This document shows positions 3,242-6,721 of a stretch of 10,204 bases of DNA, piece by piece; positions within the stretch are counted from its first letter, which is position 1, and every line of letters begins with the position of its first letter. The translations under genes were made by a program, and so were the position numbers. This DNA is from a virus, in UHGV virus genome UHGV-0144897. One strand, 5' to 3'. The notes beneath the pieces are model-generated. The model did no database searches. It was not told the origin of the DNA and was given only the letters and a program-made list of their open reading frames with translations.

Positions 3242-3469
3242 TTAAGCGGCTTTTGGTTTACTGATTTCAAGAATCTGGTTTTCGGTAAACTGACCACCAG
3301 ATGCAGCTGCGATTTTGGACGCATAGCCTGTTTCGCCTGTGTAGTCGGTGCGCGGTAGGCAACCGCTATTAATCCACTTGTAAATAGCGCGGGGAGTGCG
3401 CCCGCAAGCCTTCGCCACCACCGGTACACGGATTTGTTTGATGATGTCGCCAAGGTTTTTAGGTTGCAT
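3242..3469 (-). CDS. Cro-like / YdaS-like HTH DNA-binding protein (75 aa)
   Basis: ORF-track 3242..3469. ATG 3469..3467 with GAGGG RBS. HTH-like VVAKACGRTPRAIYKWINSG. Divergent from the cI-like repressor across an operator-rich region. Confidence 0.75.
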   Translation of the reverse strand: MQPKNLGDIIKQIRVPVVAKACGRTPRAIYKWINSGCLPRTDYTGETGYASKIAAASGGQFTENQILEISKPKAA

Positions 3470-3485: not shown

Positions 3486-3559
3486 TTGAACTGTAAGTAC
3501 ATATTATGTCGGAACTGATAGTTCACGCAAGTGATATTATGATTGAACCTATGGTTCAA
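3486..3559. promoter_or_regulatory. OR-like control region: three TGAAC/GTTCA-type operator dyads with divergent PR-like and PRM-like promoters
   Basis: Site A TTGAACTGTAAGTACAT (3486..3502); site B GAACT-GAT-AGTTC (3512..3524); site C TTGAACC-TAT-GGTTCAA (3543..3559). Minus-strand promoter: -35 TTGCGT (3530..3525), 16-bp spacer containing site B, -10 CATAAT (3508..3503). Plus-strand candidate: -35 CTGATA (3515..3520), -10 TATGAT (3538..3543). Site A recurs near-identically in the pL-like region. Confidence 0.45.
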
Positions 3560-4261
3560 GAAGAAAAAGCGCGTACAGAGTTTTCCCAACGGCTAGCGCT
3601 GGCCTGTGATAAAGCTGGTTTACCTGCTCATGGTCGTCAGGCTGAAATTGCAAAGCGAATGAAGCTAACACCAAAAGCAGTAAGCAAGTGGTTCAATGGG
3701 GAGGCTATTCCAAGACGTGGCAAGCTGCAGGAACTGGCGGCTATAATTGGCACATCCTCGTCTTACCTATTAGGCGATAGTGCAGCAGATGGCATATCTG
3801 AAGGGCATATGGCAATGAGGGACGATTCTTTCCGTGTAGACGTTTTTGATATTCAAGCTAGCGCTGGGCAAGGAATTCTTGTGCGAGATGAGTTCATTGA
3901 AACAATCAGATCCATAGAGTATTCAACCGAAGAGGCTCGCGCCGTATTTGGTGGGCGCCCAGCTGACCACATAAAAATGATTGCCGTGAATGGCGATTCT
4001 ATGTCTGGCACGTTCGAGCCGAGAGACCAGATCTTCGTCGACGTGAGCATCGACTGCTTTGACGGTGACGGCATATACATTTTCGTTCTGGACAATGATC
4101 TCTACATAAAGCGCCTTCAAAAGCAGCACAAAAAATTAGCTGTGATTTCAGACAACAAAAAATATGAGACCTGGTATATCGAGGATGGTGATTTTTCATC
4201 TCTTCGGATCTGCGCGAAGGTCTTGGTAAGCCAATCTAGAGCATATAGATTTCATAGCTGA
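3506..4261 (+). CDS. cI-like prophage repressor (N-terminal HTH, C-terminal S24/LexA-type autopeptidase)
   Basis: ORF-track 251 aa. HTH GRQAEIAKRMKLTPKAVSKWFNGEAIP resembles the lambda cI recognition region. S24 motifs AVNGDSMSG (Ser) and LYIKRL (Lys). No SD before any candidate ATG (3506, 3539, 3551); start may be leaderless at 3551, inside dyad C. Confidence 0.9.
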   Translation: MSELIVHASDIMIEPMVQEEKARTEFSQRLALACDKAGLPAHGRQAEIAKRMKLTPKAVSKWFNGEAIPRRGKLQELAAIIGTSSSYLLGDSAADGISEGHMAMRDDSFRVDVFDIQASAGQGILVRDEFIETIRSIEYSTEEARAVFGGRPADHIKMIAVNGDSMSGTFEPRDQIFVDVSIDCFDGDGIYIFVLDNDLYIKRLQKQHKKLAVISDNKKYETWYIEDGDFSSLRICAKVLVSQSRAYRFHS

Positions 4262-4272
4262 GGAAGTTAAGC

Positions 4273-4860
4273 ATGGAAGCAATTAAGGTTACAGATCTTA
4301 GTGATGGAAGCGGTTTGTACGAGCTTGGCGACCACTTCATCACCTGCAAATTAAGCCACGATAAACGTTGGCAACTAGGTGCTTTCAAACGTGATGAAAG
4401 CAAGCTCAGAGATGACACACTGGCGGTTTTGAAGAATGAAAAATTCATGTTTATGGTTAAGCTCGGCGGACAGCTTTCTCCCAAGCCTCAATGCATAGCT
4501 GTTAACGGGCGATTTTTATTTTCTGTCCATACCGGCAAAGACAACAACATGGCTGCAGCCATAGTCATGGATAACACCGGGAAAGAGTTATTCAAGATAG
4601 AAACTTCCACTCACCTCATCAGTTCGGCCATATCTGAATTTGGGCGCTACATCGCCCTATCGTTTGCCGGTAGCAAAAACAAAGATGATTTTTACGCGCA
4701 CCGGCTTGAGGTCATAAACATTGATACCGGAGAGGTGTTGATGTCCGTTATCAAAACAGACTTCCTTCGATACGCTGAGCTTTCAGTTGTTGAGCCAGAC
4801 GGCGGACTTTTCGCAACTTTTAATGGTCGCACAAGGCTTGTTGATGTGACGAACCTCTAA
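4273..4860 (+). CDS. hypothetical protein (195 aa) translationally linked to the repressor; rexAB-slot moron, candidate exclusion/defence gene
   Basis: ORF-track 4273..4860. GAGGAAG RBS 6 nt upstream of the ATG; starts 12 nt after the cI-like TGA. No Walker, HTH or TM segment recognised. First 60 nt are about 45% GC. Confidence 0.8.
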   Translation: MEAIKVTDLSDGSGLYELGDHFITCKLSHDKRWQLGAFKRDESKLRDDTLAVLKNEKFMFMVKLGGQLSPKPQCIAVNGRFLFSVHTGKDNNMAAAIVMDNTGKELFKIETSTHLISSAISEFGRYIALSFAGSKNKDDFYAHRLEVINIDTGEVLMSVIKTDFLRYAELSVVEPDGGLFATFNGRTRLVDVTNL

Positions 4861-4923
4861 TAAATCAAACCAGCCCCAACCCACCTCGCCCAATCAATAA
4901 AAAATTCAAAAATATTTCTCCTT

Positions 4924-5012
4924 AAAGTTCATAAAGTTAATCGTATATGAACTTTCCATTCACAAACAATGTACTTTTGGTACTTTACATGAATGAACTA
5001 TTGGTACATTAT
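4924..5012 (+). promoter_or_regulatory. pL/OL-like region: operator-like dyads and candidate leftward early promoter
   Basis: Inverted repeat AAAGTTCATA (4924..4933) / TATGAACTTT (4946..4955). TGAACT-N4-GTACAT at 4994..5009 matches OR site A (3487..3502). Candidate -35 TTTACA (4984..4989) and -10 CATTAT (5007..5012), 17-bp spacer. GTAC-containing repeats TTGGTAC at 4977 and 5001. Confidence 0.35.
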
Positions 5013-5230
5013 CAATCCATCGAAACGAAACATCGACAGCTGAGCGAAGTTAGCCAGCGGCGGAGTGGAGTTAGATGACCGCTTAGAGCCGCCACTTGAA
5101 TTTCAGCAGGTGACGGGGAGCGCGAAGGGTGAAGCGGACGTGAGAGCGTTGGCGTGACCAGCTGGAACTAAAGGTTTACCAGCAGCTCTTTGCGAGGGGC
5201 TGACGGTAAACAAACAGAGAGGTGGAAATC

Positions 5231-5419
5231 ATGCTTGGGTGTGAAAAGTGCGACCACGGATTCGTGTTCACCAGATGCTGTTCTGGTCTTGCTGAAATGT
5301 GTGGATGCGGCGGAATGCCGGTTCAGGCCACTAATTGCAAGAACTGCAATCCAGAGAATAAAGAGCCGGATGACGCGGAGACAGAATCGCTTCTCCAGTA
5401 TGTCGAATGGGTCGATTGA
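5231..5419 (+). CDS. small Cys-rich protein (62 aa), putative zinc-binding; first gene of early-left operon
   Basis: Part of ORF-track 5222..5419 (GTG start). ATG 5231 has AGAGAGG 8 nt upstream. MLGCEKCDHGFVFTRCCSGLAEMCGCGGMPVQATNCKNCNPENKEPDDAETESLLQYVEWVD has 9 Cys in CxxC/CC/CxC arrangements and an acidic C-terminus. Confidence 0.6.
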   Translation: MLGCEKCDHGFVFTRCCSGLAEMCGCGGMPVQATNCKNCNPENKEPDDAETESLLQYVEWVD

Positions 5420-5431
5420 TCAGCATTTCTC

Positions 5432-5448
5432 CCGCATCAGCGGGTAAC
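5432..5448 (+). repeat. 17-nt intergenic hairpin element CCGCATCAGCGGGTAAC, copy 1
   Basis: Stem CCCGC (5431..5435) / GCGGG (5440..5444), loop ATCA. Ends exactly 16 nt before the ATG at 5465. Identical 17-mer at 5654..5670. Confidence 0.6.
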
Positions 5449-5464: not shown

Positions 5465-5653
5465 ATGCACAAGTGTCAATTCTGTGGGTACTTTCTGGCA
5501 TCTGAAGAGATGCAGAGAATATCTGTAAACATGGTTGGCAGGCCTTACAACATCTGCATTCCATGCTCAGAAAAGTACAAAAAGAAAGGCCTGTGGGATT
5601 CGGCAAAAAACGATATCGACTGGAAAGCACTTCCATGCGTCGATGAGACATAA
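5465..5653 (+). CDS. small zinc-ribbon-like protein (62 aa)
   Basis: ORF-track 5465..5653. GGAGAG RBS. CQFCG...CIPC (two CxxC pairs) plus one further Cys. Confidence 0.6.
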   Translation: MHKCQFCGYFLASEEMQRISVNMVGRPYNICIPCSEKYKKKGLWDSAKNDIDWKALPCVDET

Positions 5654-5670
5654 CCGCATCAGCGGGTAAC
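5654..5670 (+). repeat. 17-nt intergenic hairpin element CCGCATCAGCGGGTAAC, copy 2
   Basis: Begins right after the TAA stop (5651..5653). Ends exactly 16 nt before the ATG at 5687. Identical to copy 1 at 5432..5448. Confidence 0.6.
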
Positions 5671-5686
5671 GACAGAGGAAAATTTC

Positions 5687-5905
5687 ATGTCTTACATCAC
5701 CGAAAACATCCACCTACTTTCAAACTTCAACGCTGATCCGGCAACTATCGCGAATATGAAATCGCTGGTATTGCCCTGGGCAAAGAAGCGCTTGAGTGAG
5801 TATCAAGAGCTATACGCATTGTGCCCTGAAGCGATATTCAGCGACGAAGTTGAAACGCTAAAAGCTGGCATCGCAGTTTGCGAACAAAGATTACAAGCCG
5901 CCTAA
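5687..5905 (+). CDS. hypothetical protein (72 aa)
   Basis: ORF-track 5687..5905. AGAGGAA RBS. The stop codon lies in the loop of the downstream terminator hairpin. Confidence 0.6.
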   Translation: MSYITENIHLLSNFNADPATIANMKSLVLPWAKKRLSEYQELYALCPEAIFSDEVETLKAGIAVCEQRLQAA

Positions 5906-5921
5906 CCAGCGGCTTTTTTAT
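5895..5921 (+). terminator. rho-independent terminator inside the early-left operon
   Basis: Stem AAGCCGC (5895..5901) / GCGGCTT (5909..5915), 7-nt loop containing the TAA stop of the 72-aa gene, followed by TTTTAT. Confidence 0.55.
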
Positions 5922-5947
5922 CGGCCACATAAAACAGGAGGATCGGT

Positions 5948-6586
5948 ATGGGCTCGGCAGCTACCGACATCATTCTTGAGAGCAAGAGAAGCCGAAAGAA
6001 AAATAAGGGGCCTGTCCACGGAGTTGGGATTATTGATGTTCCATTCAGTGTGCGCGGAACAGTAGATGGGAAAAAGATATACCACCGAGCCTTTAAGGTT
6101 TGGAACAGCATTTTGCAGCGATGCTATTACCCACCTATTCAAGCCAAGTATCCATCATACATAGGCTGCTCTGTTTCCCCTGAATGGCTGCTCTTCTCTG
6201 GTTTCCTTAAGTGGTGGAAAGCGAATTTTCATGAGGGCTGGGAAATCGATAAAGACCTCCTATTTCCTGGCAACAAGATCTACTCACCAGATAAATGCCT
6301 TTTCGTTCCATGCGATCTGAATAGTTTTGTAATCAGCCGAGAAGCAAAGCGCGGACCTTCTCCTATCGGAAGTACGTTTGATGCTCGTTATGGCGTTTAT
6401 AGGACAACTATCAGTCTTGGGAAAGGCCAAAAGCATTACTTGGGGTCGTTCGTTTGTCCAGACGAGGCATACACCGCCTGGCTCAGTGCAAAGTTGAAGC
6501 TTGCTGAGCGATTCAAACCAATCTGCGACGAGATACACCCTCAACTTTACGACAGCCTACTCACGAAAATTCGCTCGATTAAATGA
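5948..6586 (+). CDS. free-standing endonuclease-like protein with a C-terminal AP2-type DNA-binding domain (HNH/homing-endonuclease-associated type), 212 aa
   Basis: ORF-track 5948..6586. AGGAGG RBS 6 nt upstream. C-terminus ARYGVYRTTISLGKGQKHYLGSFVCPDEAYTAWLSAKLKLAE fits the AP2 signature (YxGV...GK...LGxF...EA..A). N-terminal W-x6-RC...Y-x-Y-x-G...W-x-x-F...F pattern recalls phage HNH-associated proteins. Family is recognition only. Confidence 0.75.
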   Translation: MGSAATDIILESKRSRKKNKGPVHGVGIIDVPFSVRGTVDGKKIYHRAFKVWNSILQRCYYPPIQAKYPSYIGCSVSPEWLLFSGFLKWWKANFHEGWEIDKDLLFPGNKIYSPDKCLFVPCDLNSFVISREAKRGPSPIGSTFDARYGVYRTTISLGKGQKHYLGSFVCPDEAYTAWLSAKLKLAERFKPICDEIHPQLYDSLLTKIRSIK

Positions 6587-6721
6587 ATTGCTAAACCGAC
6601 ACATGTGGTCGGCTTCGTTATGACAACTGGCGGCCATCCACCGCCCATTGAAACACTGAATAAATGCGTTGAAGTCTTGTATTAACCGTTCCGTTCGCCG
6701 CGATAAGGCCAAGAGGAAATC

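Follow-up and report, generated by a model that had tools for sequence, protein, structure and literature searches.

The hairpin at positions 5895-5921 of the window (the whole stretch of DNA analysed here, 10,204 nt of the virus genome UHGV-0144897) is, with a probability of roughly three in four, a functional Rho-independent terminator and the counterpart of phi80 tL1A. It lies ~900 nt into the pL transcript of a lambdoid phage of the phi80/HK639-like kind, where it would form both the fixed 3' edge of a slot with swappable contents and a conditional barrier to the polymerase.

The gene order of the window is that of a lambdoid immunity region, with the following two genes to the left of the region discussed here:

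3242-3469, minus strand: Cro-like gene, with the replication genes further left.
3506-4261, plus strand: CI/LexA-like repressor gene (phrog_4, E 2e-50).

On the plus strand, the repressor gene is followed by a 195-aa gene, small ORFs, an HNH-like gene, a DnaQ-like exonuclease gene, a Sak4-like gene and SSB. The DNA matches form a mosaic, composed of HK225, phi80, Enterobacter phages and E. coli prophages. The hairpin is located between the small ORFs and the HNH-like gene:

5895..5921, plus strand: probable rho-independent terminator, counterpart of phi80 tL1A (from the sequence, scans, folding, the phi80 match and relatives).

In direct reading, the 5' arm AAGCCGC (5895-5901) and the 3' arm GCGGCTT (5909-5915) form a stem of 7 pairs, five of them G-C, closed by the 7-nt loop CTAACCA (5902-5908). 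On the 3' side the stem is continued by TTTT (5916-5919), an A (5920) and a T (5921), and the six consecutive T residues span 5914-5919. The TAA stop codon of a 72-aa ORF (5687-5905) occupies 5903-5905, within the loop of the hairpin, while the next ORF starts at 5948, preceded by its Shine-Dalgarno sequence AGGAGG (5936-5941). The consensus terminator scan reports the site on the plus strand; on the opposite (minus) strand, GTAATCTTTG comes after the hairpin, and a real T-tract is therefore lacking. The terminator hairpin is the centroid structure of its 51-nt context (-10.6 kcal/mol). When a 162-nt context is folded, the hairpin recurs without change in both the MFE and the centroid structure; no competing structure is formed, and no upstream sequence was found that could make an alternative anti-terminator by pairing with the 5' arm.

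With strict criteria (a perfect stem of at least 7 bp with at least 5 G-C pairs, a loop of 3-8 nt, and 6 or more T residues among the 8 nt where the stem ends), the hairpin is the only site on both strands of the window, and none was found in 100 dinucleotide-preserving shuffles. The looser consensus scan is not discriminating (21 sites, with 11 +/- 3.7 expected). The site has the G+C-rich hairpin and the U-rich tract of an intrinsic terminator, and it occurs beyond chance. The original prediction had described a 7-bp GC-rich stem with a T-tract, the TAA of the 72-aa gene in the loop, and an endonuclease-like gene just downstream, all of which is confirmed by direct reading, the fold and the strict scan. 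The 7-nt loop and the five G-C pairs suggest that the termination efficiency is moderate, not high.

The site had also been proposed to be an intrinsic terminator of the tL1 type that splits the early-left operon, and it has the same sequence and genomic position as a named feature of phi80. In the phi80 record JX871397, positions 32473-32495 are annotated as 'tL1A; rho-independent leftward transcription terminator', with the sequence AGCCGCCTAACCAGCGGCTTTTT (4948-4970 in our reference locus L003). All 23 of the 23 bases are identical in the window, which has one extra T, and the strand relative to pL is the same. The flanks also correspond: on the 5' side, the same pL leader is found ~900 nt upstream of the hairpin, and the linker catttctcccgcatcagcgggtaacgaca precedes the upstream gene in both phages (as well as the 72-aa homologue in the E. 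coli HL15 prophage). On the 3' side, positions 6617-6700 of the window are 97.6% identical to the small-ORF region that comes just after tL1A in phi80, between tL1A and tL1B. As judged from the sequence identity and these flanking landmarks, the element at 5895-5921 is the orthologue of phi80 tL1A, with the downstream landmark displaced by a 660-bp HNH-like insertion.

The two loci differ in what surrounds the terminator. In both, it overlaps the end of the upstream ORF (in phi80, the stop codon of gene N), but this ORF is the 98-aa N in phi80 and an unrelated 72-aa ORF in the window, and the stop codon is a TAG at the 5' foot of the stem in phi80, whereas it is the TAA in the loop in the window. 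In the window, moreover, the HNH-like gene is inserted directly after the terminator, and boxA and nutL, which are present in the phi80 leader, are absent. In the older phi80 record M11919 (1985), the 't-L1 regulatory signal' is placed at 1408-1777, downstream of the hairpin (~1345-1367). For this reason, the phi80 terminator mapped by experiment may be tL1B (rho-dependent, as named in JX871397), and tL1A is perhaps a prediction only.

The exact terminator 22-mer is found in at least 120 viral (IMG/VR) contigs, where it follows ORFs of ~30 unrelated families. In 64 loci (viral contigs, reference loci and the window), its distance from the conserved pL leader, on the downstream side, is 466-1540 nt. 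For the comparison of the terminator site among relatives, the conserved downstream ORF served as an independent anchor. Of 67 unique contexts, 65 form a hairpin at this site that abuts a T-tract and folds at -7.9 kcal/mol or below, and at least 10 stems are represented (GCCGC/GCGGC, CCCGC/GCGGG, GCCCTC/GAGGGC, GGTCGC/GCGACC, GTCGC/GCGAC, GGCTGCC/GGCGGCC and others). The hairpins of the relatives, which are followed by T5-7, include the HK639 type ACCCGC/TCCG/GCGGGT, annotated as a terminator at the same site in HM208537, and the loops CACG, TACG, TTCG and TCAG are also seen. Further hairpins at the site are AGCCCTC/CGCG/GAGGGCT, AAAGGTCGC/TTCG/GCGACCTTT, AAGTCGC/CTAGT/GCGACTT and GGCTGCC/AGGTA/GGCGGCC. 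Stems with G.U intermediates (GTCGC/GCGGC, GGTCGC/GCGGCC) are found along with compensatory variants, and substitutions confined to the loop of the phi80-type hairpin give CTAACTA, CTAATCA and CTAACAA. Since the relatives keep a stem and a T-tract with other stems and with G.U and compensatory variants, the hairpin and T-tract at this site are under selection for termination. A search of genome contigs with the 14-mer GGGTGAAGCGGACG gave chance matches only, in GC-rich genomes.

The presence of one 22-mer behind ~30 unrelated ORF families, many of which take their terminal GCC GCC TAA from it, may be accounted for if the hairpin is not primarily a terminator but a recombination linker, or a stabiliser of mRNA 3' ends, at a cassette boundary. 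The homology between the window and the E. coli HL15 prophage, which breaks off exactly at the T-tract, also fits such a boundary. A pure recombination linker needs no T-tract, however, and the unrelated hairpins that substitute for this one in relatives keep both the stem and the T-tract, which makes this explanation quite improbable as the main one; the linker and terminator roles are compatible and not exclusive. The pattern of loss points in the same direction. Loci without a slot gene are also without a terminator at this place (84 Perceval-type loci, plus L255 and L257, which carry put); outside the Perceval type, a perfect hairpin with a T-tract is found in 40 loci, and most of the other 20 have imperfect or G.U-containing ones. 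A terminator that is present with the slot gene and absent without it is predicted by selection for termination, not by a mere recombination joint.

The identical 22-nt terminator also ends genes outside the pL slot, for example a Sak4-like gene and a 434-aa capsid-like gene (IMG/VR contigs L118, at 7787, and L028, at 3118). Because of these occurrences, it is taken to circulate among these phages as a general terminator module.

Upstream of the terminator, the end of the pL-proximal region is organised as follows:

5231..5419, plus strand: Cys-rich small ORF of 62 aa (ATG 5231) or 65 aa (GTG 5222); phrog_28167, function unknown.
5431..5444, plus strand: linker hairpin, first copy, CCCGC/ATCA/GCGGG, followed by TAAC and a Shine-Dalgarno sequence.
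5465..5653, plus strand: 62-aa Cys-rich ORF; phrog_19863 (E 8e-44), function unknown.
5654..5665, plus strand: linker hairpin, second copy, CCGC/ATCA/GCGG, the upstream edge of the slot of the 72-aa gene.
5687..5905, plus strand: 72-aa acidic ORF in the position of phi80 gene N, flanked by the linker and the terminator that also flank phi80 N.

The DNA of the 62-aa ORF at 5465..5653 is 98.8% identical in phage HK225. For the 72-aa ORF, only 11 homologous clusters were found, and PHROG, Pfam and NCBIfam searches gave no match. Pfam and NCBIfam searches with the small ORFs (the Cys-rich ORF at 5231..5419 included), the HNH-like protein and phi80 N also gave no match. In 59 of 124 loci the linker hairpin motif immediately precedes the slot gene, and in phi80 it immediately precedes N. 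The ORFs that end at the terminator hairpin fall into ~30 BLAST-unrelated clusters of 42-434 aa, phi80 N being one of them and the 72-aa family another. The 107 unique upstream ORF ends include 36 whose stop codon is the TAA of the loop and another 36 whose stop codon is no more than 12 nt from the stem (72/107 taken together), and for the ORFs that stop in the loop the last two codons, GCC GCC, are supplied by the stem (GCC GCC TAA). From this arrangement, the terminator is the fixed 3' border of an exchangeable gene cassette, with the linker hairpin as its 5' border. The slot itself (5654-5921) is hypervariable, with the unrelated ORF families of the relatives all placed between linker and terminator.

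Extra genes of this kind are known in lambdoid phages as morons, which are promoter-gene-terminator insertions (reportedly treated by Juhala et al. in 2000). The slot resembles a moron in that a variable extra gene has its own terminator at its end and is found in some close relatives and missing from others; it differs in that no promoter of its own was detected, and in its place inside the pL operon with conserved hairpins on both sides. As an alternative, the hairpin might work in the prophage, as a moron-type insulator that ends lysogen transcripts (from cI-operon read-through or an internal promoter), so that the slot genes are on and the kil-like and recombination genes silent. The joint gain and loss of slot genes and terminator among relatives would agree with it, as would the fact that no terminator was found between the 195-aa gene (which ends at 4860) and pL in the window, unlike in L001 and Perceval. 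HK022 keeps its exclusion gene nun at this same position. We nevertheless consider the insulator function rather unlikely: no promoter was found 5' of the slot genes between 5012 and 5976, the repressor bound to oL would stand in the way of read-through, and the putative antitermination element described below would be part of any transcript that runs through the leader.

In the main reading the terminator lies within the pL operon, and the following elements were recognised at the start of the pL transcript:

4984..5012, plus strand: predicted early-left promoter pL (TTTACA, 17-nt spacer, CATTAT), from the promoter scan.
5017..5066, plus strand: conserved 5' leader common to all three leader types, from an alignment of 58 unique leaders.
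5074..5171, plus strand: structured leader element of 'type C', a candidate antitermination determinant, replacing the HK639 put core between identical flanks.
5174..5211, plus strand: stem-loop GTTTACC..CAGCTCTT/TGCG/AGGGGCTG..GGTAAAC directly before the first gene, predicted in the leader fold.

Positions 4948-5023 share 77.6% identity with oL/pL of HK022 and HK75, a region with annotated operators and an annotated promoter, and from 5017 onward the window is identical to the phi80 transcript leader after the annotated pL -10. The transcript probably starts at about 5019-5020. Because of the pL-like site and the identity with the phi80 leader, the plus strand from about 5020 is read as the early-left transcript, with the hairpin ~900 nt in. 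Within its first 40 nt, a boxB-like hairpin GCTGA/GCGAAG/TTAGC (5039-5054) has a 5-bp stem and a purine-rich 6-nt loop. It is conserved across the three leader types, and two variants, T->C (L065) and A->G (L080), preserve the pairing.

Lambda tL1, with N and nutL, is the textbook system for the control of such a terminator. The terminator of the window is like tL1 in being the first of the pL operon, located just after the promoter-proximal gene and gating recombination and kil-type genes; it differs in that the window lacks an N homologue, an arginine-rich protein and a boxA, so that neither the N protein nor the boxA of lambda-type N/nut antitermination is found. Lambda-style antitermination could nevertheless operate if the 65-, 62- or 72-aa protein were an N analogue that binds the hairpin at 5039-5054 and modifies the polymerase, and the position of the 72-aa gene, exactly that of phi80 N, and the conserved boxB-like hairpin in the 5' leader would suit this model. 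Against it, the 72-aa protein is acidic and without an arginine-rich motif, the three small proteins have no antiterminator match in PHROG, Pfam or NCBIfam, and the slot is occupied by ~30 unrelated families. In the window leader no match to the boxA TGCTCTTTAACAA was found within 3 mismatches, and the rest of the window contains one chance-level match, far off. The phi80-type N, moreover, is found in only 5 of 103 unique segments, put leaders included, and is not tied to one leader type. Altogether, an N analogue among the small proteins is highly improbable.

The protein annotated as phi80 N, encoded at 4653-4949 of L003, occurs in 5 of the 103 unique leader-to-terminator segments, two of which have put-type leaders, and most phages with a phi80-type boxA leader are without phi80 N. 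For these two reasons, the role of phi80 N as the general partner of the phi80-type leader is open to question.

In these 103 segments, three leader types follow the common 47-nt 5' leader: type A is the phi80 nutL type, with the boxA TGCTTTTTAACAA; type B has an HK022-like put core, and is represented by HK639, in which the leader is annotated as 'putL-like antiterminator RNA'; and type C is that of the window. The leader of the window differs from that of HK639 in its middle part alone, with identical sequence on either side of it. The stem-loop at 5174..5211 is identical in HK639, where it lies inside the annotated putL-like feature, and it also precedes different first genes in other loci. 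The element at 5074-5171 is 83-85% identical to an element that follows the predicted pL of Perceval/4A7/Lambda_4C10-type phages, starting ~55 nt after the probable pL start in the window and ~30 nt after it in Perceval. The Perceval genome has Q and no annotated N, and in the minimal genomes of the Perceval type the type C element borders on the downstream hairpin that put borders on in L255 and L257. The 209-nt leader of the window is structured (fold z = -3.87), and the RNAalifold consensus of the type C element contains two stem-loops 3 nt apart with 2 compensatory pairs, as derived from two sequence variants only.

The relation of the type C element to the two known determinants was examined with covariance models and BLAST. 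A put covariance model was built from 11 put sequences (HK639 scores 101.9 bits and HK022 putL 91 bits; HK022 putR, a positive control left out of the training, reaches 32.8 bits). The window leader gave no match to this model, the best match in the window being 7.3 bits outside the leader, and membership of the put family was therefore rejected. A likeness by eye to the phi80 nutL core (the CGUGAGARCG motif) was rejected as well, as the BLAST matches of the phi80 core do not extend to the window. In the phi80-type and put-type leaders, in turn, nothing was found by a covariance model of the type C element (best score 11 bits, E 0.45, elsewhere). No second copy of the element was found on the pR side in the window nor in 20 kb of Perceval, and the window as a whole had no Rfam match at E values up to 1.

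Without the help of phage proteins, put RNAs suppress terminators of both the intrinsic and the rho-dependent kind, acting in cis on the RNA polymerase, and their action is blocked by mutations in the beta' zinc-binding domain (PMC9378689). The type C element has the location of a put RNA, just after the early promoter in a phage without N. The window shares with HK639 the 5' leader, the stem-loop at the 3' side of the leader, an element at the position of put, the lack of an evident N gene, and, at the corresponding site, a terminator with the ATCGGCCA tail behind it. It differs from the put systems of HK022 and HK639 in that its element fails the put covariance model and has no second copy on the pR side. 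The position of the type C element argues for a candidate role in antitermination, even though membership of put and nutL is rejected. Tentatively, and with odds well below even, the stretch at 5074-5171, possibly together with the stem-loop at 5174-5211, may constitute a third, undescribed class of early antitermination determinant, most likely a cis-acting RNA, which is swappable with HK022-type put and phi80 nutL and makes the tL1A-type terminator conditional here and in the N-less coliphages of the Perceval/4A7 type. The view of the original prediction that the antiterminator is not identifiable was thus too pessimistic, as a candidate exists at the place of the HK639 putL-like RNA and of phi80 nutL. 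The terminator at 5895-5921 probably works like lambda tL1 and belongs to the phi80 tL1A group; no N/nut or put system to which it would belong can be recognised.

We infer that the hairpin terminates in vivo and that two routes of read-through exist. The polymerase starting from pL (4984-5012) would transcribe the 210-nt structured leader and the three small ORFs, and the hairpin would free a fraction of the transcripts at the U-tract (5914-5921). This release would cap expression of the genes downstream, i.e. the HNH-like gene, the exonuclease, the Sak4-like gene and the SSB. By the first route, a terminator-resistant state of the polymerase would be set in the leader by the element at 5074-5171. 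By the second, a ribosome finishing the 72-aa ORF at the TAA in the loop would occlude the hairpin, as may be expected from another terminator: for lambda tR2 in vivo, bringing the stop codon closer, from 28 bp upstream to 5 bp upstream, lowered termination from ~90% to <10%, and uncoupling translation restored it (PMC4824070). As the stop codon is inside the hairpin, a ribosome on the 72-aa ORF is expected to suppress termination.

The second route may be sufficient by itself. The terminator would then be intrinsically leaky and gated by translation, with no dedicated antiterminator: a ribosome at the TAA (5903-5905) covers the 3' arm and the polymerase reads into the HNH-like gene, whereas untranslated transcripts stop. 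The stop codon within the loop, the systematic nature of this arrangement among the upstream ORF ends counted above, and the near-complete repression of lambda tR2 by a close stop codon, relieved by uncoupling (PMC4824070), make this a possibility to be taken seriously, although it is not the one that we favour. It leaves unexplained the put or nutL found upstream of the same terminator in relatives, the leading ribosome is not always tightly coupled, and the published effect comes from a different terminator.

A terminator with conditional read-through is supported by the lack of a promoter in the gap, by the stop codons near the stem, and by the leader element at the put/nutL position. In the gap at 5922-5947, the promoter scan found no sigma-70-like promoter, the nearest plus-strand site (5976-6004) being inside the next gene. 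The original prediction had stated that downstream expression needs either antitermination or a promoter in the gap. The second option finds no support in these 26 nt, and the list omits gating by the ribosome, which the stop codon in the hairpin and the lambda tR2 precedent bring in; dependence of the read-through on an antiterminator is thus not forced.

Downstream of the terminator, three elements are found:

5932..6593, plus strand: inserted cassette with a Shine-Dalgarno sequence (5936-5941) and a 212-aa HNH/AP2-like gene (5948-6586); phrog_953 'HNH endonuclease', E 4e-72.
6596..6612, plus strand: 'hairpin 2', CCGAC/ACATGTG/GTCGG, located in relatives ~10 nt or less after the terminator.
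6620..6685, plus strand: conserved 21-codon ORF (MTTGGHPPP...), in phi80 within the region between tL1A and tL1B.

The HNH-like protein matches only the C-terminal two thirds of phrog_953. Since the expected HNH motif reads EIDKD in the 212-aa protein, the nuclease may be degenerate. In HK639 and L021, the flanks of the cassette, ATCGGCCA.ATA and hairpin 2, directly adjoin each other, and the terminator tail ATCGGCCATACATA continues straight into the conserved downstream region. The endonuclease-like gene does adjoin the terminator, as had been noted, but from these contiguous flanks it has evidently been inserted after the terminator tail and before the conserved downstream region, and is not the original neighbour. 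At the place of hairpin 2, different stems are found among the relatives (AGTCGC/GCGGCT, GAGTCA/TGGCTC, AAACGGG/CCTGTTT, CCGAC/GTCGG), and the hairpin may sequester the weak Shine-Dalgarno sequence of the 21-codon ORF.

In general, the terminator at 5895-5921 is a known kind of element, ordinary though neatly built. Its value lies mainly in annotation, as it defines the operon structure of the prophage, places the HNH-like gene as a later insertion behind a stop signal, and provides the link to a named feature of phi80. The linker and the terminator, which bracket ~30 unrelated small genes, give a map of an accessory-gene exchange site in phi80-like phages, and the slot is a likely seat of exclusion or anti-defence genes. 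One position in the leader is filled by nutL, by a put RNA or by the third element, and should the latter indeed be an antiterminator, a new polymerase-reprogramming RNA would be at hand.

Two further observations concern other parts of the window. Between the 195-aa gene and pL (4861-4983) there is no terminator-like hairpin, while relatives have one (L001 at about 4262-4290; Perceval, locus L126, at 2257-2274); for this reason, transcripts of the immunity operon might run into the pL leader in the lysogen. At 2620-2653 on the plus strand, a long hairpin with a T-tract is found between a replication gene and a cII/YdaT-like gene, on the strand opposite to both, at the position of the terminator of the phi80 M3 / lambda oop antisense RNA.
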